A stretch of DNA of 64,000 bases from Pecten maximus (Eukaryota), in NCBI RefSeq assembly GCF_902652985.1, contig NC_047026.1, forward strand, positions 2,703,307 to 2,767,306, written 5' to 3'. How positions within the stretch are numbered: position 1 is the first letter of the stretch; every line of letters starts with the position of its first letter. Position numbers and translations under genes: made by a program. The notes under the pieces are model-generated. The model ran no database searches. It was not told where the DNA came from and saw nothing but the letters and a program-made list of their open reading frames with translations. This document shows positions 10,575 through 38,431 of the stretch, piece by piece.

Positions 10575-10788
10575 CTGTAAACGCTGAAATTAATGCAAGG
10601 GGGAAATCTACGCTAATTACGCTGACTCCATTTGTTCGCGAAAATTTCCCTCACATGTATTATTTTGATATCAATTTCAATGATCTTGAACTACAAGGAA
10701 AAGTGGATCGATCGCAAAAATTACCCCCACGCATATAGTTTACGTATTGAAATCGGGAAATTAACCCCCGCGAAAATAATGTTTACAG
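10575..10788 (+). mobile_element. MITE copy 1, Tc1/mariner-like, terminal inverted repeat CTGTAAACG...CGTTTACAG, flanked by TA
   Basis: The inverted termini are visible. Homologous copies lie at 12694-12921, 36103-36348 and 38211-38431. Confidence 0.7.
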
Positions 10789-10847
10789 TATTTTGTTCCA
10801 ACAAAAGAACTCCAGGTTTCATACTTTAGATATAGAGGATCCTACAG

Positions 10848-11155
10848 GCTAGTTGAATTTCGTAACAGAAGGGAATAATTCTGTGCTATCGGATTATTGG
10901 GGATTCTGTAGTTCAATTTTGTGACAGAAGGGAATATTTCTGTAATATCAGATTATTGGGGGTTCCGTAGTTTGATTTTGTGATGGAAGGGAATATTTCT
11001 GTAATATCAGATTATCGGGGGTTCCGTAGTTTGATTTTGTGTCAGAAGTGAATATTTCTGCACTGTCAAATTATTGGGGGTTCCATAGTTTGATTTTCTG
11101 ACGGAAGGGAATGTTTCTGTAATATCGGATTATAAGTGATTCCGTAGTTTGATTA
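10848..11155. repeat. Tandem repeat of about 60 bp, 5 copies, in CDC23 intron 6
   Basis: tagtttgattttgtgatggaagggaatatttctgtaatatcagattatcgggggttccg is reiterated. Confidence 0.85.
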
Positions 11156-11181
11156 TTGACTTTGACCTTTTTTTGTTTCAG

Positions 11182-11279
11182 ATGTTGATCAGGCAATGAC
11201 AGTGTTTACAGAGCTACAAGAAATGGATCCCTACAGATTAGAAAACATGGACATCTTCTCCAATCTGTTGTACATCAAG
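11182..11279 (+). CDS. CDC23: CDC23 exon 7 (DVDQAMTVFTELQEMDPYRLENMDIFSNLLYIK)
   Basis: Acceptor ttttgtttcag| and donor aag|gtaata. Matches human DIDKALSIFNELRKQDPYRIENMDTFSNLLYVR. Confidence 0.9.
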
Positions 11280-11973
11280 GTAATATTTAATACATTATAG
11301 TTAGTTATTTTCGCACTTAAAAAAATTCACAACTTTCATTTAAAATGAAAGAATTTATTAGAAAATTCAATAAATTTAATTTTGGCAGTATGGCTATTAA
11401 AAAGATCATTATCAAAGTTTTACGATTATTGATTGAGCATGCAAACACCAGTATGGTTCAACGAGATCGAATGATTATTTATGTTTATAAATTTTTCAGT
11501 TTTGTTGATGTAAACTTTCTTACTCATTCACCGTTGATATCTGTAGATCAGATGTAGTCACAGGAAAATAAATAATTAGTCCCCTACCGGTGAAACTTGG
11601 GGAGGTTATGGGTTTCCTCCCCTTCCTCCTTACCATCTTATGCATATGTACGCATCACCAAGTTTATCAGCGATCTAGTTGCTTCATTCCTTGAAGGATT
11701 TTTATAAAATTTCATACAATGATTAAGGACTAAAATGTCTTGGACAAGTTCAAGTTTAAGGGTTTTTGTGTCAAGGTCACTGTTACTGTTTATAGCAGGG
11801 GTCAGGGGACTTTGAGTCAAGGTCACTGTGACTATTTAAAGCGGGGGTCAGTAGGGGACATGTATTGCTTAAGCAATACTTACTGTATGCTTGGTTTGTT
11901 AAAAAAAATGTTACATTGTATGACAGTGTATGAGGTAGGTCAACTCACCAGCGCCATGTGGTGGGAATTTCCA

Positions 11974-12180
11974 GGGGCCGCGGTGGTTAAGTTGTTCCGA
12001 CACTTTATCACTAGCCCTCCACATCTGAGTTGCGAGTTCGAAACCTAAGTGGGGCAGTTGCCTGGTACTGACCATAGGCCAGTGTTTTTTTTCCGGGTAC
12101 TCCGGCTTTCCTCCACCTCCAAACCTGGCACGTCCTTAAATGACCCTGGCTGTTAAAAGGACGTTAAACAAAACCAACCA
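11974..12180 (+). mobile_element. tRNA-derived SINE, copy 2
   Basis: Same family as 6132-6350. Confidence 0.7.
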
Positions 12181-12359
12181 AATGGGAATTACAATTTATC
12201 CTAGCGATATGAGAACAAGTGTTGCTACGTGGCATATGGCCAGTGTACTGTTCGTTACTCTTTTCTTTTACAAATGGATAATATGTTGTACAACAATATC
12301 TGACATTACTACTACAACCCCTTACCTGTTAAGTCTGTGACGGTTCCTCTCTATTGTAG

Positions 12360-12441
12360 GAGATGAGGGCTGAGCTGGCCAACTTAGCTCACAAGTGCTG
12401 TGACATCGATAAATACCGAGTTGAGACCTGCTGTGTTATTG
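12360..12441 (+). CDS. CDC23: CDC23 exon 8 (EMRAELANLAHKCCDIDKYRVETCCVI)
   Basis: Acceptor ctctattgtag| and donor g|gtgagt. Matches human SELSYLAHNLCEIDKYRVETCCVIG. Confidence 0.9.
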
Positions 12442-12693
12442 GTGAGTAATCTAGTTACTGACATACCCATACACCCACCACAGCTCTGGCCAGCCCAGTC
12501 ATAAGTTACCATTAATCCAGTTTTCTTTTCATTATTCGGCCATCTTTAATCCAGTTGTCCCACTATCAACCAACCATTTTTGAGATTTTTCTTTCTCTCT
12601 ACATTGTACCATCATTGACACAAAACTCAACAGTTTGAATCTCCTATTGTGCTTATGAATTTAATATCTTCTGAAATATTGGGATGAATTATA

Positions 12694-12921
12694 CTGTAAG
12701 TGTGGACTTACACGAGGAAGAAAATTATGCTAATTACGGGGAGTCATTTTGATCATGAAAATTTCTCCACATATATTATGACTGTATTTGTATATCAATT
12801 TGCCTAATCTCGAACTATACTGCAAATGGTTGGATCAATCGTGAAAATTACTGCCTAGCATATAGTTTAAATATTGACATCGCGAAATTAACCTCCCCTC
12901 GAAAATAACAATGTTTACAGT
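12694..12921 (+). mobile_element. MITE copy 2, slightly diverged terminal inverted repeat CTGTAAGTG...GTTTACAG
   Basis: About 80% identical to copy 1 along its length. Confidence 0.6.
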
Positions 12922-13079
12922 TAATTTTCTTAGAACTATTTAATTTGATGTATTACAGTCATGTGTGTGTATGTTCTTGTTACGTGTGGTCGTTCTTGAG
13001 AGTGGTCGTAAATAGAGGACCACTGTACCAATGTATCATGGTCATTTGTATGTACTCCTTAATATTGTTTATAATGTAG

Positions 13080-13244
13080 GTAACTACTACTCCATACGAC
13101 AACAACACGAGAAAGCTGTGCTGTACTTCCAGCGGGCACTAAAACTGAATCCACACTACCTCTCAGCCTGGACCCTCATGGGCCACGAGTTCATGGAACT
13201 GAAGAATACATCTGCCGCTCTACAAGCTTACAGACAGGCTATAG
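13080..13244 (+). CDS. CDC23: CDC23 exon 9 ([55 protein letters not shown])
   Basis: Acceptor ataatgtag| and donor g|gtaaac. Near-identical to human [54 protein letters not shown]. Confidence 0.9.
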
Positions 13245-13834
13245 GTAAACCAGGAATTAATGTAGTGAATCCAATCCTGTTGTAATTGCAAGAGAAAAAA
13301 AAACTATTAAAACTTCAAGGTGAAAGAAACGCATTTGAATGTCATGCACCATGGAACATCCACCAGACAAGGAATGGTAAATAAAAATTAAGATAAATGT
13401 TGGCTGATTTGAACAGTAAGATAGCTGTCTTGGTCTTGTCCATTTTGCTAAGTGTGCCTGTTGCAGGGCTCAAAGTAGATATATTTAACAGGTGGCCTAT
13501 TTGGCTACCAAGTCATAAAGTCCAGGCGCCAATTGGAGAAGTTAGTCGCCCGGCCAAGTTGTCTAACATTTGAAAAGAAAAATCTTTTAATTCTTTAGTT
13601 CAGTGCAACATCTCTCTGAAACTTTTTCAATTGTGAACGTCATTTTAGAACTGACTGCAATTTTTGAAAGATTAAACAAATCACAAATTTTAACGGACAT
13701 GCAGTGCCTTATACGTCAATAACTGGTCGCCAATGGTGAATTTAAGGTGCCATGGCCACTAAAATAGGCGCCACTTTGAGCCCTGTGTTGATCCTGCTTC
13801 ACAAGAGTTAAATTTACTGCCTGTGTTTTATCAG

Positions 13835-13943
13835 AGGTTGAGCGGAGAGACTACCGAGCATGGTACGGACTTGGACAAACCTACGAAATCCTCAAAATGC
13901 ACTACTACTGTCTCTACTACTACAGACAAGCTCAGAAACTCAG
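13835..13943 (+). CDS. CDC23: CDC23 exon 10 ([36 protein letters not shown])
   Basis: Acceptor gttttatcag| and donor ag|gtgagt. Matches human [36 protein letters not shown]. The donor at 13944 is the first copy of a 37-bp tandem array. Confidence 0.9.
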
Positions 13944-15070
13944 GTGAGTCACCATATCATTGTCAGGCTCAGAAACTCAGGTGAGTCACCATATCATTGT
14001 CAGGCTCAGAAACTCAGGTGAGTCACCATATCATTGTCAGGCTCAGAAACTCAGGTGAGTCACCATATCATTGTCAGACTCAGAAACTCAGGTGAGTCAC
14101 CATATCATTGACAGGCTCAGAAACTCAGGTGAGTCACCATATCATTGTCAGGCTCAGAAACTCAGGTGAGTCACCATATCATTGTCAGGCTTAGAAACTT
14201 GGGTGAGTCACCATATCATTGTCAGGCTCAGAAACTCAGGTGAGTCACCATATCATTGTCAGGCTCAGAGACTCGGGTGAGTCACCATATCATTGTCAGG
14301 CTCAGAAACTCAGGTGAGTCACCATATCATTTTCAGGCTTAGAAACTCAAGTGAGTCACCATATCATTGTCAGGCTCAAAAACTCAGGTGAGTCACCATA
14401 CCATTGTTAAACTCTAAAACACAGGTGGGTCACTATATCATTGTCAGACTCGGGTGAATCACCATATCATTGTCAGGCTCAGAAACTCAGGTGAGTCACC
14501 ATATCATTTTCAGGCTTAGAAACTCAAGTGAGTCACCATATCATTGACAGGCTCAGAAACTCAGGTGAGTCACCATATCATTGTTAGACTCTAAAACACA
14601 GGTGGGTCACTATATCATTGTCAGACTCGGGTGAATCACCATATCATTGTCAGGCTCAGAAACTCAGGTGAGTCACCATACCATTGTTAGACTCTAAAAC
14701 ACAGGTGGGTCACTATATTATTGTCAGACTCTGGTGAATCACCATATCATTGTCGGGCTCAGAAACTCAGGTGAGTCACCATATCATTGTCAGGCTCAGA
14801 GACTCAGGTGAGTCACCATATCATTGACAGGCTCAGAAACTCAGGTGAGTCACCATATCATTGTTAGACTCTAAAACACAGGTGGGTCACTATATCATTG
14901 TCAGACTCGGGTGAATCACCATATCATTGTCAGGCTCAGAAACTCAGGTGAGTCACCATATCATTGACAGGCTCAGAAACTCAGGTGAGTCACCATACCA
15001 TTGTCGGGCTCAGAAACTCAGGTGAGTCACCATATCATTGACAGGCTCAAAAATTTGGGTGTGTCACCAT
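13944..15070 (+). repeat. 37-bp tandem array (gtgagtcaccatatcattgtcaggctcagaaactcag), about 30 copies. It begins exactly at the exon 10 donor, and each unit repeats the exon's last 13 nt plus the GTGAGT donor
   Basis: The first unit is the authentic splice junction ctcagaaactcag|gtgagt. Confidence 0.95.
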
Positions 15071-15390
15071 ATTACTGTTAGTCCCAGAAATAGTATTCAG
15101 GTATATATATCACTTTCACTGTTACCACCATAAGAAAGTTAAAGTCAATTCACTGTTACCACCATAAGAAAGTCAATTTAATAATTTCTACCAAAAAATG
15201 GTTAAGAAATGTTCCTTCGAATATTTGGCAAAACTGAAAACAAAGTGAACCATTCAAAGCATGCTTTACAGTATTGATAATTCCTTTAGAATACATTCAG
15301 GTAATTTGTATGGAGGTATACATATGTTGACTCTTGTAGCTATAAACTATGGAATGATTAATTTCTCATGCTTGTAAATGTTCCTTTCAG

Positions 15391-15528
15391 ACCGAATGAC
15401 TCTCGGATGGTGATGGCCCTGGGAGAGACATACGAGAAATTAGAGAGGCTGCAGGAGGCTAAGAAATGTTTCTGGAAGGCCAACTGTATAGGAGATATGG
15501 AGGGAACTGCCCTCATCAAACTAGCCAG
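15391..15528 (+). CDS. CDC23: CDC23 exon 11 (RPNDSRMVMALGETYEKLERLQEAKKCFWKANCIGDMEGTALIKLA)
   Basis: Acceptor ttcctttcag| and donor ag|gtcagt. Matches human RPNDSRMLVALGECYEKLNQLVEAKKCYWRAYAVGDVEKMALVKLAK. The last 44 nt of the exon plus the donor form the first unit of a 56-bp tandem array. Confidence 0.9.
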
Positions 15529-16452
15529 GTCAGTAATAACTGTATAGGAAATATGGAGGGAAATGCCCTCATCAAACTAGCCAGGTCAGTAATAACTGTA
15601 TAGGAGATATGGAGGGAAAATCCCTCATCAAACTAGCCAGGTCAGTAATAACTGTATAGGAGATATGGAGGGAAATGCCCTCATCAAACTAGCCAGGTCA
15701 GTAATAACTGTATAGGAGACGTGGAGGGAACTGCCCCCATCAAACTAGCCAGGTCAGTAATAAGTATGTAGGAGATATGGAGGGAACTGCCCTCATCAAA
15801 CTAGTCAGGTCAGTAATAAGTATGTAGGAGATATGGAGGGAACTGCCCTCATCAAACTAGCCAGGTCAGTAATAACTGTATAGGAGACATGGAGGGAAAT
15901 GCCCTCATCAAACTAGCCAGGTCAATAATAACTATGTAGGAGATATGGAGGGAACTGCCCCCATCAAACTAGCCAGGTCAGTAATAAGTATGTAGGAGAT
16001 ATGGAGAGAAATGCCCTCATCAAACTAGCCAGGTCAGTAATAACTGTATAGGAGATATGGAGGGAAATGCCCTCATCAAACTAGCCAGGTCAGTAATAAC
16101 TGTATAGGAGATATGGAGGGAAATGCCCTCATCAAACTAGCCAGGTCAGTAATAACTGTATAGGAGATATGGAGGGAACTGTCCTCATCAAACTAGCCAG
16201 GTCAGTAATAACTGTATAGGAGATATGGAGGGAACTGTCCTCATCAAACTAGCCAGGTCAGTAATAAGTATGTAGGAGACGTGGAGGGAACTGCCCTCAT
16301 CAAACTAGCCAGGTCAGTAATAAGTATGTAGGAGATATGGAGGGAACTGCCCTCATCAAACTAATCAGGTCAGTAATAAGTATGTAGGAGATATGGAGAG
16401 AAATGCCCTCATCAAACTAGCCAGGTCAGTAATAACTGTATGGGAAATATGG
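15485..16452 (+). repeat. 56-bp tandem array, about 17 copies. It begins 44 nt before the end of exon 11, and each unit is the exon's 3' end plus the GTCAGT donor plus 6 nt of intron
   Basis: The unit tgtataggagatatggagggaactgccctcatcaaactagccag|gtcagtaataac repeats with a 56-nt period. Confidence 0.95.
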
Positions 16453-18745
16453 AGGGATCTTTCTCAAATTTCATATGTAGGTTCCCCTTGGTGCCTAGTT
16501 ATGCATATTGCGTTTTGAGACCAATCTGAAAACAACATGGCCGACAGGCAGCCATCTTGGATTTTGACAATTGAAGTTTGTTATCGCTATTTCTGAGAAA
16601 GTACTGAAGGGATCTTTCTCAAATTTCATATGAAGGTTCCCCTTGGTGCTTAGTTATGCATATTGCGTTTTGAGACCAATCGGAAAACAACATGGCCGAC
16701 AGGCAGCCATCTTGGATTTTGACAATTGAAGTTTGTTATCACTATTTCTGAGAAAGTACTGAATGGATCTTTCTCAAATTTCATATGTAGGTTCCCCTTG
16801 GTGCTTAGTTATGCATATTGCGTTTAGAGACCAATCCGAAAACAACATGGCCGACAGGCAGCCATCTTGGATTTTGACAATTGAAGTTTGTTATCACTAT
16901 TTCTGAGAATGTACTGAATGGATCTTTCTCAAATTTCATATGTAGGTTCCCCTTGGTGTCTAGTTATGCATATTGGGTTTTGAGACCAATCTGAAAACAA
17001 CATGGCCGACAGGCAGCCATCTTGGATTTTGACAATTGAAGTTTGTTATCGCTATTTCTGAGAAAGTACTGAAGGGATCTTTCTCAAATTTCATATGAAG
17101 GTTCCCCTTGGTGCCTAGTTATGCATATTGCGTTTTGAGACCAATCGGAAAACAACATGGCCGACAGGCAGCCATCTTGGATTTTGACAATTGAAGTTTG
17201 TTATCACTATTTCTGAGAAAGTACTGAAGGGATCTTTCTCAAATTTCATATGTAGGTTCCCCTTGGTGCTTAGTTATGCATATTGCGTTTTGAGACCAAT
17301 CCGAAAACAACATGGCCGACAGGCAGCCATCTTGGATTTTGACAATTGAAGTTTGTTATCACTATTTCTAAGAATGTACTGAATGGATCTTTCTGAAATT
17401 TCATATGTAGGTTTCCCTTGGTGTCTAGTTATGCATATTGGGTTTTGAGACCAATCTGAAAACAACATGGCCGACAGGCAGCCATCTTGGATTTTGACAA
17501 TTGAAGTTTGTTATCGCTATTTCTGAGAAAGTACTGAAGGGATCTTTCTCAAATTTCATATGAAGGTTCCCCTTGGTGCCTTGTTATGCATATTGCGTTT
17601 TGAGACCAATCCGAAAACAACATGGCCGTCAGGCAGCCATCTTTGATTTTGACAATTGAAGTTTGTTATCGCTATTTCTGAGAATGTACTGAATGGATCT
17701 TTCTGAAATTTGATATGTAGGTTTCCCTTGGTGCCTAGTTATGCATATTGCGTTTTGAGACCAATCAGAAAACAACATGGTCGACAGGCAGCCATCTTGG
17801 ATTTTGACAATTGAAGTTTGTTATCACTATTTCTGAGAAAGTATTTAAGGGATCTTTCTCAAATTTCATATGTAAGTTTCCCTTGGTGCCTAGTTATGCA
17901 TATTGCATTTTGAGACCAATCAGAAAACAACATGGCTGACAGGCAGCCATCTTGAATTTTGACAATTGAAGTTTGTTATCGCTATTTCTGAGAAAGTACT
18001 GAATGGATCTTTCTGAAATTTCATATGTAGGTTTCCTTTGGTGCCTAGTTATGCATATTGCGTTTTGAGACCAATCAGAAAACAACATGGTCGACAGGCA
18101 GCCATCTTGGATTTTGACAATTGAAGTTTGTTATCACTATTTCTGAGAAAGTACTGAATGGATCTTTCTGAAATTTCATATGTAAGTTTCCCTTGGTGCC
18201 TAGTTATGCATGTTGCATTTTGAGACCAATCGGAAAACAACATGGCCAACAGGCAGCCATCTTGGATTTTGACAATTGAAGTTTGTTATCGCTATTTCTG
18301 AGAAAGTACTGAAGGGATCTTTCTCAAATTTCAAATGGAGGTTCCCCTTGGTGCCTCGTTATGCTTATTGCATTTTGAGATCAATTGGAAAACAATATTT
18401 CTGACAGACTGCCATCTTGGATTTTGACAATTGAAGTTTGTTATCTCTATTTCTCAAAGTACTGAATGGATCTTTCTCAAATTTCATAAGTAGGTTCCCC
18501 TTGGTCCCATGTATTGCATTTTTGGACCAGTCTGTCCTGAAAACAACCTGGCAAACAAACAGCCATTATCGTTAAATCTCAAATTTCTTATATAGCTAGG
18601 ATTCCCTTGTTTGAAAAGTACTGGAGGGATGTCTCAATTTGCACAGATTAGTAAAATGAAGGGAAAAGTAGAGAAAAGATCAATCTGACATGGAACCTAT
18701 GAAGATCATTCAATGGTGGGCGCCAAGATCCCTCTGGGATCTCTT
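16453..18745 (+). mobile_element. Satellite-bearing composite element: about 13 copies of a 154-155-bp satellite plus a roughly 250-bp tail ending in a GATCCCTCTGGGATC hairpin
   Basis: The period is visible (gggatctttctc recurs at 16455, 16609 and 16764). The terminal sequence cattcaatggtgggcgccaagatccctctgggatct is shared, reverse-complemented, with the elements at 43893, 49865 and 51757. Confidence 0.8.
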
Positions 18746-18997
18746 GTTTCTTTTCTTTTTTTTTAATTTCTGGTCATTTTTATGGCAGTTGTGTCTCTTT
18801 CGGTTATGATTGTAAAAAGAATCTTTTCCAGACAATTTCCTTGCCGTCTCCATCCAAACTTGTTTGGAAATTTCACTGATGTAGTCACCATACACTATGC
18901 ACTTGCTGTTTTACTGTTTTAACTGTTTTATTATGGCAGTTATGGTAGACACTGTAATCATTAAACTAGCCAGGAGGGTGTAGTTAATGGGAAATTT

Positions 18998-19001
18998 GTG
19001 T

Positions 19002-19050
<49 letters not shown>
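18998..19050. repeat. (GT)9 followed by G35, a homopolymer
   Basis: Visible directly. Confidence 0.9.
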
Positions 19051-19197
19051 CTTGTTATATCCTAGAAACTGCAAATTGCAAAACCATTTTTGTCATGAAT
19101 CAATATTTCAAAAAATTACACACATGAAATTGTATTTCAAATAGGCCATTCAAAATATTTGATGTGATTATAATAAACATTTCTATCATTGTCACAG

Positions 19198-19276
19198 ACT
19201 TCATGAGAAACTACATGAGGAAGACCAGGCAGCCTCTGCCTACACAGACTACATCAACGAGGCCAGTCGACAGGGG
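19198..19276 (+). CDS. CDC23: CDC23 exon 12 ((R)LHEKLHEEDQAASAYTDYINEASRQG)
   Basis: Acceptor tgtcacag| and donor ggg|gtaagt. Matches human LHEQLTESEQAAQCYIKYIQD. Confidence 0.8.
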
Positions 19277-19502
19277 GTAAGTCTACTTCATCAGGCGTGC
19301 TTTAATGTCACCTGTCATATATTGTCAACAGGGAGATAATGACATGTACTTATGATAAGTGCTTTGTTTGTCGTTAATGTTTATGGTGTAAATAAATGAA
19401 TGTAAGAAATGTCATTTTAGTGTAAACGTGTATCAATGTATAATTCAGTAATTAGTAAGGAGATACTTTTGCCAAAAAACTAGACTGATTTTTTTCTGCC
19501 AG

Positions 19503-19619
19503 AACTACAATCCTGAGGACCAGAGTCAAGCGTACAAGTATCTAGCTAACTACCACCTAAAACTTGGACAGCTAGACGAGGCGTTCACTGCTGCCCAGAA
19601 GTGTTCTGAATTCCCAGAG
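19503..19619 (+). CDS. CDC23: CDC23 exon 13 (NYNPEDQSQAYKYLANYHLKLGQLDEAFTAAQKCSEFPE)
   Basis: Acceptor ttttctgccag| and donor gag|gtttgt. Matches human AFRYLAQYYFKCKLWDEASTCAQKCCAFNDTRE. Confidence 0.85.
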
Positions 19620-19849
19620 GTTTGTAGTCATTGCCATCTTCTCTCTCTTCATGTTTACTGTAACAATGATGTGGTCGTTGACCATCACTAGATAGTGTTT
19701 ATAATTCTACCCAAGTGAATTAGGTCAGTTCAAGCGTGATGTAAGATATATTTGGTTATATTTGCTGAGGATTTAGTTTCCTTATAACCGCGGTCATTAA
19801 ATTCAACACGAAAATAAAAACCAGCGAAGTGTGCGTTAATATGCCTGAC

Positions 19850-20240
19850 AATTGAAACAGAATGTAGTTAATGCTTAAATAAGCCCATGCCTGGTAAACA
19901 GAATATAGTGTAATGCTTAAATAAGCCCATGCCTGGTAAACAGAATGTAGTGTAATGCTTAAATAAGCCCATGCCTGGTAAACAGAATATAGTGTAATGC
20001 TTAAATAAGCCCATGCCTGGTAAACAGAATATAGTGTAATGCTTAAATAAGCCCATGCCTGGTAAACAGAATGTAGTGTAATGCTTAAATAAGCCCATGC
20101 CTGGTAAACAGAATATAGTGTAATGCTTAAATAAGCCCATGCCTGGTAAACAGAATATAGTGTAATGCTTAAATAAGCCCATGCCAGGTAAACAGAATGT
20201 AGTTAAATGCTTAAATAAGCCCATGCCTGGTAATAAGCCC
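19850..20240. repeat. 42-bp minisatellite, about 9 copies, in CDC23 intron 13
   Basis: aagcccatgc recurs at 19881, 19923 and onward. It generates the spurious ORF 19868..20242 (the MGLFKH repeat). Confidence 0.9.
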
Positions 20241-20400
20241 ACCCTGGTCTATGGCAGTTTATGTGTTGGCCCACTGGGTTGATTACAGGATAAATACGGT
20301 AATAATTAACAATTATAGCTTTTATACAAGTTTAGAGAAGAAAGATGTAGTTGCCTGGTAATTAATCTAAAAGTGAGTTTAACCAATTTTTCACCTGCAG

Positions 20401-20583
20401 ACCAGAGAAGAGGCAAAGGGTATTCTTCGAGATATACAGAGTCTTCGTGCACAGAAGGAAGGCCTGAGTACTCCAATGAGAATGGACGACAGTATGGGGT
20501 CCATCACGACGGAGCGCTTCCACACCAACGATCATACGCCGATTGGTCGCCTCTCTCCTGTCAACCTCAAGTTCACACCCTGA
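20401..20583 (+). CDS. CDC23: CDC23 terminal coding exon (TREEAKGILRDIQSLRAQKEGLSTPMRMDDSMGSITTERFHTNDHTPIGRLSPVNLKFTP*)
   Basis: Acceptor tcacctgcag|. The stop TGA is at 20581-20583. The C-terminus GRLSPVNLKFTP parallels human RRVSPLNLSSVTP. Confidence 0.85.
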   Translation, partial: TREEAKGILRDIQSLRAQKEGLSTPMRMDDSMGSITTERFHTNDHTPIGRLSPVNLKFTP

Positions 20584-20991
20584 CAAAAGTTGTAGCTACA
20601 GACTTGAAATCTAACATTGCATAACTTTTGATAGTGTAACCAACAGCAGAGAGCAAGGATATTGTCAGAAAAAAAATGTAATTTGAATGAATTGAGCAAG
20701 GATCTTGTGCCATAACCAGTCTGGGCAAGTTGCAGCTATCCTTGTTAGATAAGTGAGGTTAATCTGATTGATAGCAAACGTACCCCAATCAACTTATATT
20801 CCAAAGTATGAACATTCACATCAAAAGATTATGAATCTCTTGAATGTTTCTACTGACGATTTTTACGGGAATCTTTTTAAACTTCCACCTAGTGAAGTAA
20901 TCAGAAGAGAGGCTGTACCGACAACTAACTACTGTTCTGTACTGTGTTAGCGATCGTATACTTTTTTGTTGTTACTGTATTATCATGTTAT

Positions 20992-20997
20992 AATAAA
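20992..20997 (+). promoter_or_regulatory. Candidate AATAAA polyadenylation signal for CDC23, about 410 nt after the stop
   Basis: This is the first AATAAA downstream of the stop codon. Confidence 0.35.
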
Positions 20998-21099
20998 ATA
21001 TAACTACCTATTTTTGTTTTATTTCATTATCCTTATTACCATGTAATCTGATTACTAAATAATTTTATGTGTGTAGATATTGTCTATGTTAGAGGAAAT

Positions 21100-23548: not shown

Positions 23549-23578
23549 CACACACACACACACACACACACATACACA
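23549..23578. repeat. (CA)n microsatellite
   Basis: cacacacacacacacacacacatacaca. Confidence 0.95.
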
Positions 23579-25008: not shown

Positions 25009-25012
25009 TTTT

Positions 25013-25051
<39 letters not shown>
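25009..25051. repeat. T14 followed by G29 homopolymer tract, inside the predicted 3'UTR of the giant minus-strand gene (C29-A14 on the mRNA strand)
   Basis: Visible directly. Confidence 0.9.
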
Positions 25052-26050: not shown

Positions 26051-26213
26051 CTGTAAAGAAATGGTATTCATGCGCTTATAAATACCATCTAAGAAATGTG
26101 TTTCTGACTCTCCAGTTCTAGAATTTTTAGCTAAACTTTTAATAATTTTCTATTTAAATGTATAATTTATATTTACAATTTATAATATTATAATTAACAA
26201 GTATTTCACTAAC

Positions 26214-26915: not shown

Positions 26916-28811
26916 TGTTAGGACTGTCCTGGAGTTTGGCTATACAGGTGTCTTCCGGAGTTTCCGGAGTAAACATCCGAGATTTAGGAGGTGGGACTGC
27001 CTTGGACATGTATCCATAATCAATGTCCGTCTTTGGAGATGGTGACCTTGGCCTCCTCCTAACCTCCTTTGACCTGTCGGGTGACATGCTTATCTCAAAT
27101 GATGTTGTCCTCTTGTTTTCCTGTGACTTTGACCTTGACCTTGACCTTAGAGGTGAACGTGATGATGCAGTACTTTTGTGAGCTGACCTTTGCCTAATAG
27201 GAGAGCGTGTGGTTGACCTGGTGGGTGAGGTCGAGATATTCTTATGCCGTCTCTCTGGTGACATCAGAGGAACTGGGAATGACCCCTCTGTCGTTGTGAG
27301 AGGGGATATAGGGGCTTGTCTGGATAGCCTCCGACACCATTGTGACCTTCCCAGATTTTTTGCTGCGTTGTCGAGGTGGACTGACATGTATGGGAGAAGG
27401 ATACATGGTTGACACAGACTTGTACTTTCGTGACGATGGTGACCTCGATTTCCTTGGCTTTTCAAACTCGTCCACATCTATACCATTATCCTCCATCTGT
27501 GCTAAAAACTCTTCCACGTTTTCTTTATTTCTGCGGTTGAGTTTCGGTTCCTGGTAGATATCGGCGGTACTCGTCTTCGTTTTCTTGTTTTTCTGTTTTC
27601 CTTTCTTTTCACTGCTGAACTTTTCTCCTCTTTGTTTGGCTGAGAACGGCCGATGAAAAATGCTGTCTTCATTTTGCGACTCTGAATCTTCTGTTTGTAC
27701 AGGGCCTTTCATTGGGACCCTCCCTCTTGTTGGGCCCCTACCCTTATCCAGAAATGCTACTTGTCGACTTTTATTTGGAGGCTGGAAGTGTACATCGGTG
27801 CTACTATCTTTTGATGAAGTATCGGCGACAGCAACATTGGAATCTCCCTGCGAGTTGAGAGTCGAATCTGTATCTAAAAGAGTGGACGAATCTGTCATGG
27901 ATATAGACGTTGTTGACGACACCAAGTCTAGTTCAACTCCAATAGCTTTGTCAGAAAGTCTGCCCTTCTGTTTAGCATTGAGCAACATTTCTAATTTCTT
28001 GAGTTTGTCCATTCTACGAATCTCCTTCTTTCTCTCTTTGTCAATTTTATCCCGTTGGTGTATGACCTTGTCGTGGAGTTTAGCCATGAGCGGATCGATG
28101 ACATGACGGCGCCGGTTACGTTTGGCCTTTAACATCAGATCAGATTCATTCAATGCACTCGGTGTTGTTGCTTCAAAGCTTGTGTCCTCTGGTATAGAGT
28201 AAAGTGTGTCTGCACTCTCTCCAAGCTTCTGGGCTCGAGCTGGTTTTGCTTCCTTGTTTCGGTTATTATTCTCCTTATTTTTCTTTTCTTTTTCTGCACG
28301 CTTCTTCTTTTCCTGATGAGCGAGGATCTCGGCGTAACTGCCATTGCTCTCGTCATCTCCACTCAACCTCTTCCTATACTCGGCTTCACGTCTCAATCGC
28401 TCGGCCTCTTTTCGTTGCCTTGCTGATTTTTCCACTTCCTGTTTCTGAGTTGTCTGCCCTTCATCTGCCTCTTCATTCAATGTGTTAAGCTCTTTCATCA
28501 ACCGGTTCTCCTTAGCACGTTCATACGTAACATCGTCCATGTACTTCTGGACAACATGCTTTGTGGGGTTCTTAATTAAGCTCGTAAGTGTATCCATCCG
28601 CGGGGTGTTCATACTGCTCTCGCTGGCATTGCTGGGATCCACATCCTTAAACCTCTGCCACATGTCGTTGATGTTTGGATGGACTGACTCACGATATTCC
28701 TTCTCAAGACTCTCACGAAGGATGACAACGCGCTTGCTGGGAGGCCTCTTGTCGAACTCTTCATCATATTCACTCTCATCGTCCACCAAGGGAACAAATT
28801 TGTGTTGAGAC
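26916..28811 (-). CDS. Giant gene large exon ((R)SQHKFVPLVDDESEYDEEF... coiled-coil K/E/R-rich segment ...SP/RS-rich tail ...LQDSPN)
   Basis: Acceptor atctgtag| and donor a|gtaagt. ORFs 27242..28789 and 26872..27477 overlap by 235 nt in frames offset by 1, a second frame break. The length is 1896 nt, so the boundary phases require a net shift of 1 nt. Confidence 0.6.
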
Positions 28812-29088
28812 CTACAGATGAAAGAAAGATTTCAGTTGTATACAATTTTTTTTTGTCTTCCATACCAAGTCCCTTGAATTACATACTTTTTTCAAAATTC
28901 TCCCAAAATGACCTTTGACCTGTAACCTTTAAACAATGATCAACTGACCCCTGATCTGTACACTTATTCATCTGTTAGTTGACCCCTGACCTGACCTCAC
29001 TGAATTGTGACCTTTGAAGTTTTAATTGACCCCTGTTTTGTGACCCCCAAACAACTATTAGCTGACCTTCGACCCTTTATGCACTTAC

Positions 29089-29189
29089 CTGGCTTTCATC
29101 TCCAGGTCCCTGATCAGTTTGTCCCGTTTCTCCTTCAGCAGTTTTTCTTTCTCCTCATTTATAGCATCCTCAAAGTCAGAATCAGGCAG
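29089..29189 (-). CDS. Giant gene exon (LPDSDFEDAINEEKEKLLKEKRDKLIRDLEMKA)
   Basis: Acceptor ctgacacag| and donor ag|gtaagt. Phase 0 in, phase 2 out. Confidence 0.65.
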
Positions 29190-29894
29190 CTGTGTCAGAC
29201 AATGAACAAGCATGTTATATCATGTGTTAATCTTAGTAAGCAATACTTATAGCAAAGAAAATATGTCACACTGATGTGATGTCATAGATAATTTATGATG
29301 TCATAATAAAAACATGGAAATCACACAATTGTCCATAGGGGAAAATATACCATCCAAGTCGAAAATGGCCTATCTTATGTAGAAATTGATTTGAGTTCTA
29401 ATTTACATTACGCATAAATATGAGTCAAGTGATCAACAGAATCTTACACTTGTGGATATACAAACTGGACATGAGGAATTGAAATTATACATGTTTACAA
29501 ATAATATTAAAGTGATTAAACATTTAACAACAAAGTAGAAAACTTTGGAGATAGAAAACACTTCAAATCTGAAATAAAAATTTAAGCCATGTTAATCTGG
29601 GCCGTTTTCGTTTTTGCGGTCCGAACGGTTAATCAAGTTGGACCGGTGTTGTTCGTTTATGAAATTAAGACGGACCTGGTGATTTTATATTGTTTTTAGA
29701 CGAGCCTTGACAAAGACTTCCAAGGCCTGTATTAACATTTGCAGGTCTGTCAAGATATATGTCTGAAATATTACATTTAGAAAACTGACAAACCGGTTTG
29801 TCCGCATAAACGAACAGGCCCATGCAGTGTCTGGGTTAAGGGGAGATAATCACACTACCCAGCACACAGAGGTAATATATATGTGTATAATCAC

Positions 29895-31335
29895 CTGCTC
29901 AAGCTCCCTAAACTGCCCATCTCCCTCTGGGTCCGTGTAAGCAGATCCTCGAGGATTATCGCGGTCCGAGTTCCTACCCATCACCTCAGCGAAATCTGCC
30001 CCTGGCTCCAAGGGTCGGGCTATCAGCCCTGGGCCTGGTTCAAGAGGTCTGTCTATCCGCGGTTCAAGTGGGTGGTCAGCACCTGGATTGTAGCCTCGGT
30101 CCACTGGTTGTCCAGTTTTATCACAGTAGGTGGCCGTGACCTCAACTCTGCCATCAGCCCTGGTTTTGATTTGCCCACGATGGACTCATGAGTCGCTGAC
30201 GCTCAGCCTGGGTGACATACTCTACTGGTGCATTATCTCCCCTTGATCTGTACCGACCATCAATACCACCGTTATCTGATGTGCCCCGTCCAGTCTCTCG
30301 TCTATTTTGATAGATCTCCCTATCAGAGTGGTAGTTATCTCTTGCAGACGGGCGCTGATAGATGTCTCTTGCATCTAGTTCTCTGTAATGTTCTCCTGGT
30401 TCAAGTGACCTTGACCTCAATCTAGGATTGTAATCAATTTCTTTGTCCAAAGGATCAAATTTCTCTAGATCTTTATAGTCTTTTCCTCTCTCCAAAGATC
30501 TCTGTTGAAGCCTCTCTTCCATGTACTTTGCCATATGATCCTGGGCTTGACCTGGCTTGGGGCTTCCCCTGCCGCCAGCAATCGCTGGGGAATCCATTGT
30601 CGTATGATGAGAGAAAATTGGAGATGGTTGGCATGACAACTCCATTAACCTTGTGTTGTGAACTGGTGAGGAATTCCTGTGACTCTCTGGACTGAGGGCA
30701 ATAAGATCTGTCTCTGACTTTGACCTTGACCTTGTGGCCCCGACAGGGTCCTGTTGGTAGTAGTTCCTTCCTTCAGAGTACCTGTCCAAAGGGTAGACAG
30801 ACAGGTCACCCTCCCGGCCTGGGTGTGGGGTGAAGATGTCGCCAGGGTCCGACCTTGTAGTGACAGACAGGGGATCGTCTTTACTTTCTGTACCACTGTT
30901 AATTCTCTCCTTGGGTCGCGTCTCTGTGGAGGTCAGTCCTGAATAATCTGATCCAATACTTCTATATCTATGACTGCTGGTTCCTGTGTCAGCTGCGAAT
31001 CGGTTGCCAAGGAAGTCATCCCCAGGCACCAGACGGCGTTCATCCCTGTGCTGACTTTCTGATGCCAGTCTGGAGGGATTGTAACTCCCTTGATATTCTC
31101 GGTCTTTCAAGGGCAGATCACTCCGTGAACGAAGGTCCGCAGAAGTTGGTTTTGAGCTCCTGTATGGCACAACCTCATCCTGGTCACTTTCCTGTCTCCC
31201 GGGACGACCTGAGAGGAGTTCAAGGCCACTGTCTGGACGTTGTTCTGTTGAAACAGTGTTATCTCCCCTTGAATTGCCGGAATGCATGGATCTCCTGTCT
31301 AAGCCACTGTCTGTCCCAGACTTATCCCGGTCATC
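29895..31335 (-). CDS. Giant gene large exon (DDRDKSGTDSGLDRRSMHSGNSRGDNTV...YVTQAERQRLMSPSW... then (D/H)RPLEPG repeats ...FRELEQ)
   Basis: Acceptor tgttgacag| and donor cag|gtgatt. ORFs 30154..31287 and 29850..30104 sit in frames offset by +1 around 30104-30156, so the exon holds a frame break: either a 1-bp indel or a very short intron (for example a 55-nt candidate, 30146..30200). Confidence 0.6.
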
Positions 31336-31792
31336 CTGTCAACACAGAATAAAAAAATTTAAAATTTAAACCCCCACCAAAAACTAGGATTTTAAAGATT
31401 TACTTGAATGTATCTTTTTCACCAAACCAGCCTTTCAGTGTAACAATGTAAATCCACTTTGCACAAATATGGATTTTTTTTTGTAAATAAAATCATTTTT
31501 TCTCCTACTAAATAAGGAGTATACCTTTACCCTTCTGTGGTCAGATCAATGACGAGCAGTCGCACCATGTAACCTAAAATTATTTCTATTGGGCTTGGTG
31601 CTCCAATTAATAAGTGAAAACCCTTATTTTAGAGTCAGTTCACTATCTCTCTAATTTCAATATAATGATTCTTTACATAAGCAATTGATATGTTGTCCCA
31701 TTATTCAAACATTTTGTACAGTCTGATAAATCTCTGATTGGTTGAGGTAATGGTGTTTCATATAATCTTGAAAATCAAAATACCCAACCCTC

Positions 31793-32000
31793 CCCCGCGG
31801 TGGTTAAGGTGTCCCGACATTTTATCACTAGCCCTCCACCACTGAGTTGCGAGTTCGAAACCCAAGTGGGACAGTTGCCTGGTACTGACAGTAGGCCGGT
31901 GGTTTTTCTCCAGGTACCCCAGCTTTCCTCCACCTCCAAAACCTGACACGTCCTTAAATGACCCTGGCTGTTAATAGGACGTTAACTGAAAACAAACAAA
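31793..32000 (+). mobile_element. tRNA-derived SINE, copy 3, 5'-truncated, in an intron of the giant minus-strand gene and antisense to it
   Basis: Same family as the other two copies. Confidence 0.65.
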
Positions 32001-32049
32001 CACCCCTCCCCCCTCCTAGTCTTCCATCCTATATACAATGACCACTTAC

Positions 32050-32189
32050 CACCAAGGATTTCTCCTCAATAGTGGAGAGTCCATCAGATGAAGGTTTGTG
32101 ATTACTGTAGATACCGCCAGATTTAGGGCCGTCCAGTCTTGATCCCAGGCAATGGGAAGGGAATGATGGCCCAATCGCGTCATCGGAAC
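32050..32189 (-). CDS. Giant gene exon ((G)SDDAIGPSFPSHCLGSRLDGPKSGGIYSNHKPSSDGLSTIEEKSLV)
   Basis: Donor gtg|gtaagt. Acceptor tgttgtag| (phase 1). An alternative acceptor ttcttcag| at 32219 would add LIVDVAHVV. Confidence 0.55.
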
Positions 32190-33840
32190 CTACAACATGG
32201 GCAACGTCGACAATTAGCTGAAGAAACAACAGTTCTGTGGTCTACATACACATCGACCATTCTGGCCCGAATTAGCACAGTGTGCTTGCAAAGAATGGTG
32301 TACTTATTGAAACTATTCTACGAGATAAGTTCTGTGTCAAATCAGGGTTGAAAGGAAAATCATGTATTTTTTTTTTTTTTTTTTTTCAGAAATTGAAAAC
32401 TATGGATAATATCGGTAGATCAAGTCACACAAGCAACTTTTTCAAATGCGTTGAGCCTTTGATCAAGCATACCCATCCCCTTTCTTGTTGGAAAAAGTGT
32501 GTCTATGTTTGAGCAGTCACACTTAAAAAGAAATGAATACAACATAATTTGGAGTTTGCCTGAAAGTTGTGTTCAGACCACCATTTCTCTGATCTCCAGC
32601 AACGGGTAATCTTATTTGGTTGACAAATAAATATTTAACAAATAAGGAGCAAAATTATTTTACATTGAAATTAAAACAAAATAGCCGAACAGTTTTTTGC
32701 GACTTAATTCATTCTACATTTAATCTTGTAGTAGCTAATATCTCAGATAGAGGCAGCAGTTTCCAATTAATAACTTTGCGATATTCACGGTACCACTGTA
32801 ATTATTTTATTAAGTTGACAGATATTACACATGTAAATATGAGGTTATTATTAATAGGCTATATAGATACATGCGAGTTAAGCACAATTATACAGTCAAG
32901 TTAAAAAGACAATAAATATAAAAGAAGTTAAGAACATTTTCCTAATTATTAACAATAAATCAAATACATCTCCTGCTGTGTTAAAATTAATTTTGCCAAA
33001 TTTTTTCTCTCTCTTTCTGAAATGAAAATTAATCAACCTGTAATAATTGTCACACTTTTCCATCCCTTTTAAGCTTTAAAAACATGCATCCAGTACAAAG
33101 TTATGTATATACACACAAATATACATAAACAGGGCCTACAGGATAAAACACATACTGATATTATACATAAACTGGGCCTTCTCATACAAATACTAGTGCA
33201 GACTGTCAGCTGAAAGAATTACTTATATTACCAGGAATATACGAAATGTACATATAGACCTGCCTACGGTCAGATATACCTGGTATGAGTTTAAAGATGA
33301 CCTACTCAAACACTTGCTATTATAAACAGGGCTTAATTCAGAGGAATATGAACAGACAGCTGAAGTTATTAAATATTAATAAGCAGACACCTGTCAAGGG
33401 TGTTTCAGGATATCTAATTGTATGGGATTAATATTGATCAATTCTTAGCTTTCGTAGCTCAACCTATACCTTCGTATCTACAGTAACAGACTGGACCTAT
33501 TGAATATATCTAATAAACACCAAGTTATACAAAACTGACAGATATTGTTTACCATGCTCATTACTGGAAATGTATGAATTATCGTGGGTTCCAAATTTGA
33601 TATTTAAAATCAGTTGAATTATACATTAAACAGACAGACAGTTATCGTCAGTAAATTACCTATCAATATTCTATAAAGATTAGACACAACTTTTGTAAAT
33701 ATAATTTTACCAATTTAAATTTGTTAAAATCTGTTATGTCACAATTTCTACGAAGCGGAAATAAAAACGACATTTGTTACAGTTACATGTAGCGATTATT
33801 GTTAGGCCTTGTATTATAGAAACAACCAACAACGGGATAC

Positions 33841-34665
33841 CTCGGGGGTCCTTCCACGAGACGCTGTGTCGTCCACCGACATAGTCACTATGGAAACCAT
33901 AATGACGTTCCTTGTAATCACCATGACGACCTAGACCATTCTGATAATCTTTGCGATAATCTCTCATGTAATCAGAAGAAAAGTTAGTTTTTCCGTGATC
34001 ACGCTGGTATTCCTTCCTCTCGGAGTTATAAACATGTGATTTACGATGATCGTTTTCCGAATGAATATCACCGACAACATCGAGTTTGCTATTATTTTGT
34101 TTCTCGTAATCACGTTTGTGTTTATCACTGTCGTATTTGCGATAATCAGAATAAGTTCCAGATTTGTAATCCAATTTCTGTGTATAATCGTTAAATTTGT
34201 TAGGGGTGTCGACCGACGACGTATAACCGTTATATTTGGTTTGTGTGTCGACTGACGAGGTAGAACCGTTATATTTATTCTGGGTATTGGCCGATGGTGT
34301 ATAACCATTATATTTGGTTTTGGTGTCGACCGATGGCGTACAACCGTTATATTTGTTATGGGTGTCGACCGATGGCGTATAACCGTTATATTTGGTTTTG
34401 GTGTTGACCGATGGTGTATAACCGTTATAATTGGTTTTGGTATCGGCCGACAGCGTAGAACCATTATATTTGTTCTGAGTATCGCCCGATGGTGTATAAC
34501 CGTCATATTTGCTTTTGTAATCAGTGGGATAGCTCTTGTAAGTATCGGCGGGAGTGGTCTGGTCGTCACGGAGATATTTGAAAGTATCGTCACTATGGTC
34601 CCAGTTTCTGTATGCGTCGTCTGTAGTACAATAAAAATATTCTCCTGTACTGGCCACAGAAATAA
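33841..34665 (-). CDS. Giant gene exon: a Tyr-rich region with about 9 tandem 12-aa repeats (KYNGYTPSVDTxT), followed by a DY/RK-rich stretch
   Basis: ORF 33734..34657. Donor cga g|gtatcc at 33835-33840 with phase 1. The overlapping ORF 33964..34593 in the other frame hits a stop before the donor. The 5' boundary is uncertain; a weak acceptor attgtag| at 34666 keeps phase with the upstream exon. Confidence 0.5.
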
Positions 34666-36102
34666 CTACAATGTCTACTCTACACTTATAATTAAATACG
34701 TAACTTCCGTTAACGTTCTATTGAATTATTCGAAGAAGGGCAATTATATAAATAAACATTGTTTTAGATCTACTGGCAATCAGTCATTTAGGAGGGAAAT
34801 AATTTTAAGAAAATTTCCTGAAAGAAAATGTCAATCTTAATTTGCCAGCTTAAAAGTCTACAAGTCTCCAACTTAAATCAGCACATACACTCTCTCAACT
34901 TTTTTCACAACATAATCGAAATCCCAATACATAACAACTTTTCAAAGATACAAGATTAGTCCACTAATTTTGCAAGACTTTAATCTCACAGTACTGGGTA
35001 AAGCTTTAATCAATGAAAGTGAAAAGTGAATTGCACAGCGCAGTGCCTTAGCATTTATCTCGGAGTAGTTACACCTATCAATCAGTCTTTAGACCTGTCA
35101 ATCATGATGCCAGGAAACGAAAAAGTCTTTAAATCTCACTAAAAAGCCCAAGCTGCAATGAAGCTATTTAACTAATACTAGGGGTGTAACCCTTGGATTT
35201 TGAAAATGGGAATTATCACTTGGAATGGTATTCATGATTTTTCCTGAGCTTTAATATATGTCCAATACATTGTATACTGACTTTCATTATACTGGCATTA
35301 ATTAGCAGAACCAGAAATGTACCCAGGTAAGACTTAATGAATTTAAAAGGAAGCAGATCTAGATTGAAAAGACAATCAAATCACAAATAAAAACATAATT
35401 TGAAACAACTTGTGTGCTATTAGCACAAATGACTCAAACAAAAATGTTTGTTTTTGAAACATAAAAAAAAAAAAAAAAATGAAAAAAATAACCATGAACA
35501 AATTAGAATTATACCAACCATCACTCAGGATGTAAAATGGGTTATCTAAGAAAAAGAAATGAAAGAATGGCTCATTCCGAGGTCATTTACACACTGACAC
35601 AGTGATTTGAAACTGGTACAAGGAACATCGGGGGAAGGATGACATGCTTGGAGTGTAAAATTAAAACCAGGTTTCTGGGGTCAAATCAGAAAAATTACGG
35701 AAAAAAATTCACAAAATTCAATCATGTCCAACAGATGAAAGCAATTTCAAATCTTTTAAGAAGTATTTCACACATAAGGAAAGGTCAAATGAAATTTATA
35801 TTTGGTTTGTATACTGACTAGAGTATAAACACAAAGATTTGATATACAACAACAGAGATATTATGTACCTAGCAAGGTTAACTACAGATGATACGTATAC
35901 AATTGTATATATAATATACACAGATATACTGAAGTAGAGAAGCCAAATTATAGGTATAATTTTTCAATTTCATAATGTCAAAATCTGTTTTTCAACATAA
36001 ATTAAAGAAAGTGAATTCGAAGAGGCCAATTATAATTTCATAAAAAAATGTATCTTTTTAAATTGTTACTGTGATCTACCAGGTAATTTTATTTTTTGTC
36101 TA

Positions 36103-36289
36103 CTGTAAACGTGGAAATTTACGCGAGGGGGAAATTTACGCTAATTACACGGAGTCCTTTTGATCGCGAGAATTTCCCCAACACGTATTATTTTGATATC
36201 ATTTGAATAATCTCGAACTACAAACGAAGGTGGATCGACCGCGAAAATTACCCCAAGGCTAATAGTTTACATATCGAAATCGCGAAATT

Positions 36290-36329
<40 letters not shown>

Positions 36330-36348
36330 AAAATAACCACGTTTACAG
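36103..36348 (+). mobile_element. MITE copy 3, with its internal C5 expanded to C37 (36292-36328)
   Basis: The terminal inverted repeats are intact and flanked by ta...ta. Confidence 0.65.
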
Positions 36349-37140
36349 TATCTTAAATAAAAAGAAGTTAATTACTTGAACCTCTAAGAAAACTTGGACT
36401 CTGCATGTCACATGCCTCCAGAGATTTTCAGTATAAGATAATATTATAACTATAGTATAGAATATGTACCTGTGCTTGTATGAATATATTATGTATGATA
36501 CTTAAATACATAAAGTGAAGTTGATTTGTTCAATTTAAAATTTCTTATCACTCAGATTGGAACATAGGAAGGATTAGCAGAGAAAGAAGGAGTGATAGAC
36601 AGAGGGAGATTCACCTGAGTGTGAGCTTTCCATGGTAGAATTTACAGCTGCAAAGAATCGGCAATGGAAGATATATTACCAGTTTATACAACATGCGAGT
36701 CAGAGGATGAAGTGTCCAGTAAATAGTGTGTAAAGATGATATACCATGCACTTCTTTATCCATCAACTACATCATGAACATTCCTAAGAAGTAATGGCTA
36801 AACAAATGACTCATGCATGCTGTACCAAAAAGAAACAGGACAGAAATTTGTGTTTTTGCAAAGCAGAACCACACAGCAAAATATTTCTATATCAAACCCC
36901 TTATCACTCACAAGATCACTATTACCTATGGGCCTCTATAACAAATCCCTGAGGACCTGTGAGTTCACTATTGGCATATAACGAACTACTGTGGATCTTT
37001 AAGTTCAATATGGATCTGTAAAAAATCCCTGAAGATCTGTGGGTTCACTTTTAGCCTGTAACAAATCCCTGAGGACTTATGAGTTCACTATGGGCCCATA
37101 ACAAATTACTGAGGATATGCAAGTTCACTATGGGTCTAAG
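36349..37140 (+). repeat. Segmental repeat unit U, copy 1 (about 790 bp), immediately 3' of MITE copy 3. It ends in a 40-bp tandem sub-array
   Basis: More than 95% identical to 38432-39230. Confidence 0.8.
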
Positions 37141-38210
37141 AAAATTTCAAGACTCAAAAAACCCCAATTTTCTTTTAAAATTTTTTGAAAGAGTTATAAT
37201 TTACTAATTTTAAACCAACTTTTCCCATTAAATTTTTTAACCTTTCCCCTAAAATTTTAAATTTTCCACAAACTCATCCCCCTTTTAAACTAACTCCAAA
37301 ATTTTTAACAAATAAAATATATAAATTTAGTTTAAAGTTATCTATCTAAATTTTTAACTAAATCTAAAAAATCAATTTAAACTTTATTCCCCCAACATAA
37401 TTTCCTACTCCCCTTCCACTTTTCCCCATTCTTCCCAAAATAAATTTTCCCTAATTTCCCACTAATAACGTTTTTTAAAAATTTATGAACCCCAAATTTC
37501 AACAATTAAATTAGGGATCTATTCCACATCATCTTAACCCTTTTTCTCAACTTTTTTAAAACAAATCTCCAAAAAACTTTGTTTTAAAAAAACAGATCTA
37601 TTTTAAAAATAATTCCAAAACCCAAAATTTTTCGAAAAAATAAAAAAAGGTTTAAAAAAAATAAAAGAAAAAGAAAAATTTAATTTAAAAACTAAAAAAA
37701 TGTTTAAAAAAAAAAAAAAAAAATTAAAAACTGACATTAAAATTTAAAAAATTAAAAGTTTAATGAAAAAAAAAAATTGTAAATTAACCGGCTTAAACAA
37801 ATACCAAAAAATATAAAAAATTAATACTGCAATTGAAATTAACTCTAAAATTTAAATTGTTTTAGAAAGGAAATTTGGTTTAATTTTTTTTAATAAGCAA
37901 ACAATTTCAAAAAAAAAAAAATTCAAAAATTAAATCAGTAAAATGAAAAATTATTCTTTTTAATAAGTATTTCACAAAAGGGGGTAATAAATTTATATTT
38001 TTTTGAATAAGAAAAAAAAGATTGAATAAACAAATATTTATAAAATTATTTTTTAATTATAAAAAAGAATTAAAATTCCAAGGGGAAATTTAAAAATTTC
38101 AAAACATCCTTTTAAAAAAATTAAAAAGAAAAAAACCAAATTAAATTCAAAAAAAATTTTAAAGAAAAAACCATTAATTATATAATAAAAGCACTGAAAA
38201 AGGAAATACG
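37140..38210. other. Low-complexity block of about 1.1 kb, strongly G-depleted (A/T/C only), between the two U copies
   Basis: It has almost no G on the + strand across more than 1 kb and is dominated by homopolymers. It reads like a degenerate copy of its neighbours. Confidence 0.6.
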
Positions 38211-38354
38211 CAGGGGGAAATTACGCTAATTACAAACCGGAAGATCACTTTTACCCACAAAAAATATATACAACAACCAAAACCCACACCCCCCCCCCCC
38301 CCCCCCCCCCCCCACCCCCACCCCCCCCCCCACCCCCCCCCCCCCCCCCACCAC

Positions 38355-38412
<58 letters not shown>

Positions 38413-38431
38413 AAAATAACCACGTTTACAG
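38211..38431 (+). mobile_element. MITE copy 4, 5'-truncated, with an internal C-rich tract of about 120 nt (38289-38411)
   Basis: Its 3' half and the 3' inverted repeat match copy 3. Confidence 0.55.

Follow-up and report, generated by a model that had tools for sequence, protein, structure and literature searches.

MITEs (miniature inverted-repeat transposable elements) derived from Tc1/mariner transposons, Stowaway-like forms of which occur in plants and animals, are the described elements closest to a family of short repeats that we analyzed in 64,000 nucleotides of king scallop (Pecten maximus) DNA (i.e., contig NC_047026.1, positions 2,703,307 to 2,767,306; hereafter, the window). The scallop element resembles them in its size (214 to 246 bp), lack of coding content, inverted termini, TA flanks, and intronic, dispersed copies that are 17 to 26% diverged. 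It is unlike them in its termini (i.e., CTGTAAAC..., compared with CTCCCTCC... in plant Stowaway elements or the usual CAGT of Tc1) and in the hairpin folding of the whole element, which is no better than that of shuffled sequence (z = -0.06). The seeding of mononucleotide microsatellites by transposable elements via replication slippage is a usual and well-known process, and the scallop locus shows the corresponding pattern: where another copy has a short run (C5), one copy has at that position a run that is long and pure (C38). It departs from that system in having, as its repeat, a G/C mononucleotide that lies within a subterminal inverted repeat. False heterotype duplications, which are recognized in assemblies by divergent haplotypes on one scaffold and a gap between the duplicates (Ko et al. 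2022, PMC9516828), are likewise comparable. The shared features are a tandem pair on one scaffold, divergence near the level of heterozygosity, a bad region between the duplicates, and no reported purging; unlike in those cases, there is no run of N's here, the gap having apparently been filled with garbled consensus.

We consider it likely that the window is best explained by three old insertions of this element, replication slippage in the third of them (copy 3), and a false haplotypic tandem duplication of the copy 3 locus with a garbled consensus (Table 1). Copy 3 and an apparent fourth copy (i.e., "copy 4") are held in a tandemly repeated block of approximately 2.1 to 2.4 kb. The sequence at 36291-37137 recurs at 38374-39220 (offset, approximately 2,083 bp), so that the sequence downstream of copy 3 (from 36349 onward) is the same as that downstream of "copy 4" (from 38432 onward), and the left flanks are shared too. 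Because both flanks are shared, "copy 4" is not an independent insertion. Whether the duplication is false or real, "copy 4" is the copy 3 locus present a second time and not a separate transposition. This pair of blocks is the sole duplication in the window other than tandem arrays of short units, besides a pair of approximately 400-bp units at 5193-5995.

Table 1. Positions within the window of the element copies, the repeated block, and the long homopolymers
Feature	Position	Strand	Details
MITE copy 1 (c1), 214 bp	10575-10788	+	15 bp into CDC23 coding intron 6; TA at both flanks; C5 at the homologous site (10765-10769)
MITE copy 2 (c2), 227 bp, most diverged	12694-12920	+	CDC23 coding intron 8; TA at left, TT at right; CTCCCCTC at the homologous site
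MITE copy 3 (c3), 246 bp	36103-36348	+	12-bp perfect terminal inverted repeat (CTGTAAACGTGG/CCACGTTTACAG); TA at both flanks
Uninterrupted C38 within copy 3	36291-36328	+	Right-arm partner of GGGGG at 36127-36131
First, clean representation of the repeated block	34733-37137		Left limit approximate; ends inside a 40-bp minisatellite (36913-37137)
Garbled, deletion-riddled, G-poor stretch	37138-38288		Collinear with 34733-36290; approximately 35% of bases deleted
"Copy 4," second representation of copy 3	38194-38431	+	Left end and interior garbled; last 20 bp and flank identical to copy 3
C-rich tract, 123 nt (117 C and 6 A), length unreliable	38289-38411	+	Next to 1.15 kb of anomalous sequence
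Right half of the second block (clean)	38412-39220		15 substitutions and 1 indel per 571 bp relative to 36329-36899, followed by the full 40-bp minisatellite
G35 after (GT)9	19016-19050	+	Clean unique sequence, outside any MITE; window positions 19000-19050
T14 followed by G29	25009-25051	+	Clean unique sequence, outside any MITE; G29 at 25023-25051

The two halves of the second block differ sharply in quality. Its right half is clean: we counted 31 transitions and 23 transversions between the right halves of the two blocks, and the 571-bp nonrepetitive right flank diverges by 2.6%. Both blocks then enter the same 40-bp minisatellite, the first being cut off after approximately 5 units and the second extending for approximately 12 units. 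The left half is garbled. When it was compared with the good copy, 55% of the good-copy bases were matched and 35% were deleted, with almost no insertions, and the deletions were biased by base (G, 54%; C, 49%; T, 40%; A, 24%). From 37138 to 38290, the G content is 3 to 8%, 60% of the bases lie in runs of 3 or more, and the mean run length is 2.2 to 2.3, compared with a window mean of 1.43 (standard deviation, 0.16); no other part of the 64 kb lies more than 3 standard deviations above the mean in these run-length statistics. The garbled stretch is nevertheless collinear with 34733-36290 (z = 3.7 and z = 2.9, each at the top of its comparison set). Positions 37900-38288 follow 35690-36290 through the left-hand flank, the terminal repeat on that side (CTGAAAAAGG in place of CTGTAAACGTGG), and GGGGGAAATTACGCTAATTACA, and the best match of 37138-37900 in the window is 34733-35690, directly upstream and in order (top of 420 comparisons). 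The switch from 2.6% divergence to the garbled state falls exactly at the C tract. We also considered 37138-37700 as a degraded continuation of the minisatellite and the sequence downstream of it (39221-39900), and the match was not significant. The idea that "copy 4" kept the length of copy 3 (238 versus 246 bp), with C's overwriting internal sequence, was dropped as well, since deletion-rich degradation alone shortens the copy.

A real tandem duplication of approximately 2.1 to 2.4 kb, young and 2.6% diverged, with copy 3 in both units and an interior that is badly assembled, would fit the clean right halves, which differ almost only by substitutions, and the abundance in this region of minisatellites, which are promoters of unequal exchange. 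In that case, the C tracts would be paralogues of one another, and a true difference in their lengths would be possible. We regard a real duplication as unlikely because, exactly at the C tract, divergence leaps from 2.6% to approximately 45% unmatched bases, and the deletions are biased by base; we know of no mutational process that gives such a jump, and this counts against it. The value of 2.6% is also close to the heterozygosity reported for the species, and the layout (i.e., duplicate, bad stretch, duplicate) matches the published hallmarks of false duplications (PMC9516828).

The origin of the window is clear from CDC23, which a tblastn search with human CDC23 placed on the plus strand at approximately 4.7 to 20.6 kb. 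The best database protein is P. maximus CDC23 (XP_033757440.1), all 583 residues of which are encoded identically in the window (583/583), whereas in Ylistrum, Mizuhopecten, and Argopecten each orthologue departs from the window-encoded protein at 8 to 22 positions; thus, the window is king scallop DNA. The assembly of this species was built from PacBio Sequel continuous long reads with the wtdbg2 assembler and was polished with Arrow and freebayes; Arrow also served for gap filling, the heterozygosity measured genome-wide was 1.71%, and no haplotig-purging step is mentioned (PMC7191990). Adjacent copies that are 2.6% apart, compared with a heterozygosity of 1.71%, and the anomalous 1.15 kb between them are as described for false heterotype duplications. 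From the layout of the sequence and this assembly history (i.e., noisy reads, no purging, and Arrow-filled gaps), we infer a false haplotypic duplication. Two haplotypes of a heterozygous animal, approximately 2.6% apart here, would have been laid in tandem at a contig end or in a filled gap. One contig would have ended in the minisatellite at 37137, and the next would have begun approximately 2.4 kb earlier on the other haplotype, its poorly supported start being left unpolished, such that the break would lie between the 40-bp minisatellite and the C tract. The sequence to the left of the second C tract would then be unpolished consensus in which about a third of the bases were lost, and the tract of approximately 120 C's would be a product of the same consensus or, at best, an allele length without measurement. 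Because it sits at the edge of unreliable consensus, the length of this tract is not usable.

With "copy 4" assigned to the copy 3 locus, a single expansion event is left (i.e., C5 to C38 in copy 3). In the same alignment columns, copy 1 has C5, copy 2 has CTCCCCTC, and copy 3 has C38. The left arm of copy 3 carries GGGGG facing this run; the apparently internal C tract therefore makes up the right half of an inverted repeat (G5/C5) in subterminal position. Of the three or four similar runs (C4-C5) that the element contains, only this one expanded. The motif GAAA(A)TT(A/T)CCCC occurs two or three times in direct orientation inside the element. We propose that the right-arm C run of copy 3 passed the slippage threshold and that replication slippage then would have produced a long, pure C tract, assembled as C38. 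C38 is probably a real, transposon-seeded homopolymer with an assembled length of 38, given that other long G tracts stand in clean sequence. Its purity despite the 17 to 26% divergence of the element fits an active microsatellite, and it fits a consensus artefact too. Since G35 and G29 lie in clean sequence elsewhere in the window, neither the MITE nor the garbled region is the sole place for long G/C homopolymers.

If, instead, all of the long G/C homopolymers, including C38, were consensus artefacts, the true copy 3 tract would be short, like the C5 of copy 1. In agreement with this, no G/C run of at least 15 is present in our comparison set, which comprises 184 kb drawn from the orthologous loci of three further scallop genera (i.e., Mizuhopecten yessoensis, Argopecten irradians, and Ylistrum balloti). 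Noisy long reads are, moreover, at their weakest in homopolymer length, and runs of at least 30 are beyond repair by short-read polishing. We nonetheless find such an artefact very unlikely: both representations of the locus bear a long C tract at one and the same site, G35 and G29 stand in normal sequence beside (GT)9 and T14 in the manner of ordinary compound microsatellites, and PacBio errors rarely turn a run of 5 bases into one of 38. It also seems improbable that the C tract is truly hyperunstable, with the haplotypes of one animal carrying approximately 38 and approximately 80 to 120 C's and the length polymorphism itself breaking the assembly. Were this true, then C38, G35, and G29 would jointly suggest that very long G/C homopolymers are unusually dense in the P. 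maximus genome, some of them seeded by this MITE family.

These results alter an earlier note on the same DNA, which had counted four copies and two expansions of the C tract (i.e., from C5 to C37 and to approximately C120). There are three insertions, the fourth copy being part of the repeated block, and both long tracts belong to one locus represented twice. The note started copy 4 at 38211, while the element really spans 38194-38431. The short runs that it gave for the homologous site in copies 1 and 2 are correct, and the run in copy 3 is C38 rather than C37. The second tract does consist of C's with rare A's, as it had said, with a length that is untrustworthy next to anomalous sequence. 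An assembly artefact, which it had offered as an alternative, holds for the second tract and its surroundings; that copy 3 has a long C tract at all is probably not such an artefact.

The element itself was defined by full-length alignment of the three copies; copies 1 and 3 are 83% identical, and copy 2 is 74% identical to either. Homology between the copies is bounded exactly by CTGTAA...TTTACAG, with no relationship between the flanks beyond TA. The terminal inverted repeat is perfect over 12 bp in copy 3, 8 bp in copy 1, and 6 bp in copy 2, with an imperfect extension to approximately 35 bp inside which the left-arm G5 is mirrored by the right-arm C5. There is no coding capacity (the longest open reading frame [ORF] overlapping copy 3 is 36 amino acids long), and no transposase-like ORF or autonomous partner was seen in the 64-kb window. 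Searches with blastn and with an nhmmer profile built from the three copies, covering the window and the 184-kb comparison set, returned the same three full copies and no others in the 64 kb and no member of the family in the 184 kb. The conserved core (GGGGGAAATNTACGCTAATTAC) had no matches in metagenome and prokaryote genome collections. Matches to the terminal motif TACTGTAAAC numbered 21, compared with 5.8 expected by chance; the pairs at 133/258 and 53476/53807 were rejected as related elements, being without the extended inverted repeat.

The copies are three independent, old insertions of a nonautonomous DNA transposon of approximately 215 to 245 bp with terminal inverted repeats. They show the features of a MITE (i.e., inverted repeats at the limits of homology, small size, noncoding sequence, and dispersal over three unrelated sites within 64 kb), and the MITE family is real; it is probably undescribed, yet ordinary. 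A literature search yielded nothing specific on such a scallop MITE or on surveys of G/C mononucleotides in scallops. For these three copies, the reading of the earlier note as a short, noncoding, dispersed MITE with sharp homology boundaries is upheld, as is the placement of copies 1 and 2 in CDC23 introns 6 and 8, which agrees with our exon map. Its coordinates for the three copies stand, except that the end at 12921 takes in one flanking base. It was right about the presence of a terminal inverted repeat, the perfect length of which varies among the copies instead of being 9 bp, and about the TA flanks, save for the TT of copy 2. Membership in Stowaway in the strict plant sense does not hold, since the termini read CTGTAAAC(G) and not the consensus CTCCCTCCGT.

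The superfamily was considered from the insertion sites. TA is found at five of the six flanks of the three copies; given that the frequency of the TA dinucleotide in the window is only 0.083, this is not a matter of chance. A longer duplication (3 to 9 bp) is present at none of the copies, which argues against most other superfamilies. Assignment to Tc1/mariner, suggested by the TA flanks alone, is plausible, and a Tc1/mariner-type transposase may have mobilized the element by cutting at the CTGT...ACAG ends and inserting it at TA. Since TA-CTGT...ACAG-TA is palindromic, only an empty site can show that TA is the duplicated target. In M. yessoensis, A. irradians, and Y. balloti, where we looked for such sites, the introns proved to be unrelated, with alignment confined to the exons; in the orthologous CDC23 loci, the divergence between genera reaches even the first intron bases after the splice site.

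Consequently, the copies by themselves do not assign TA to the target, and the element might be a nonautonomous transposon of some other superfamily in which TA is the terminal dinucleotide of the element and not a target-site duplication. The TT at one flank of copy 2, termini that differ from the Stowaway consensus, and the lack of an autonomous partner within the window would all agree with such an origin. We judge it to be rather unlikely in view of the frequency of TA at the flanks relative to its frequency in the window and of the lack of 3- to 9-bp duplications, which excludes hAT, PIF/Harbinger, piggyBac, Mutator, and most other superfamilies.

Several points weigh against the explanation that we prefer (i.e., old Tc1/mariner-like insertions, slippage in copy 3, and a false duplication). 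On one side of copy 2 there is TT, and it is the flanks only that speak for TA as a target duplication. The absence of long G/C runs from the other three genera means that such tracts could be a peculiarity of the P. maximus assembly and not of the genome. At 37138-37900, where the garbled stretch begins, the match to the sequence proposed as its source is weak (z = 2.9), and a young tandem duplication that is real but badly assembled in its middle would look alike on the right half.

The value of these results is mostly practical, in that they flag a probable false tandem duplication and a garbled sequence of approximately 1.15 kb (37138-38288) in a scallop assembly of reference type, where a long homopolymer beside a minisatellite would mark an assembly break. 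Surveys of repeats, copy number, or microsatellites based on this assembly would overcount one MITE copy and one extreme C tract. For biology, the locus offers one further example of a transposon run that seeds a mononucleotide microsatellite, a process that is already well known.

Other repeats occur in and around CDC23. The tandem pair of approximately 400-bp units (5193-5594 and 5602-5995; 84% identical) lies in the first coding intron, between exons 4698-4817 and 6872-6964. Several CDC23 introns contain minisatellites whose units are made up of the final codons of the preceding exon together with the 5' splice site of that exon. Two such arrays are present in P. maximus: one has approximately 32 copies of a 37-bp unit that begins in the end of coding exon 10 (GCTCAGAAACTCAG|GTGAGT), and the other has approximately 17 copies of a 56-bp unit that begins in the end of exon 11 (window positions 13930-15090 and 15482-16457). 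A 55-bp array runs from the end of exon 6 in the CDC23 gene of Y. balloti, and a 75-bp array runs from exon 8 in that of A. irradians (exon-end arrays in other scallop loci: L003, 19671-21370; L002, 55853-57089). These minisatellites thus recur at a different exon in each species, with a potential splice donor in each unit.

Arrays of an approximately 155-bp satellite occur in both orientations (16453-18505 on the plus strand, 49871-50373 and 51940-52996 on the minus strand, and 44020-44352); they are approximately 90% identical to one another, and one of them lies in a CDC23 intron. A 307-amino-acid ORF on the minus strand (33734-34657), upstream of large minus-strand ORFs at 26.9 to 31.3 kb, encodes a 13-residue repeat (...YNGYTPSVDTKTK...) derived from a 39-bp minisatellite at 34182-34517. 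Downstream of CDC23, the other scallops have a gene for an ALMS-motif protein of approximately 2,600 to 2,800 amino acids.

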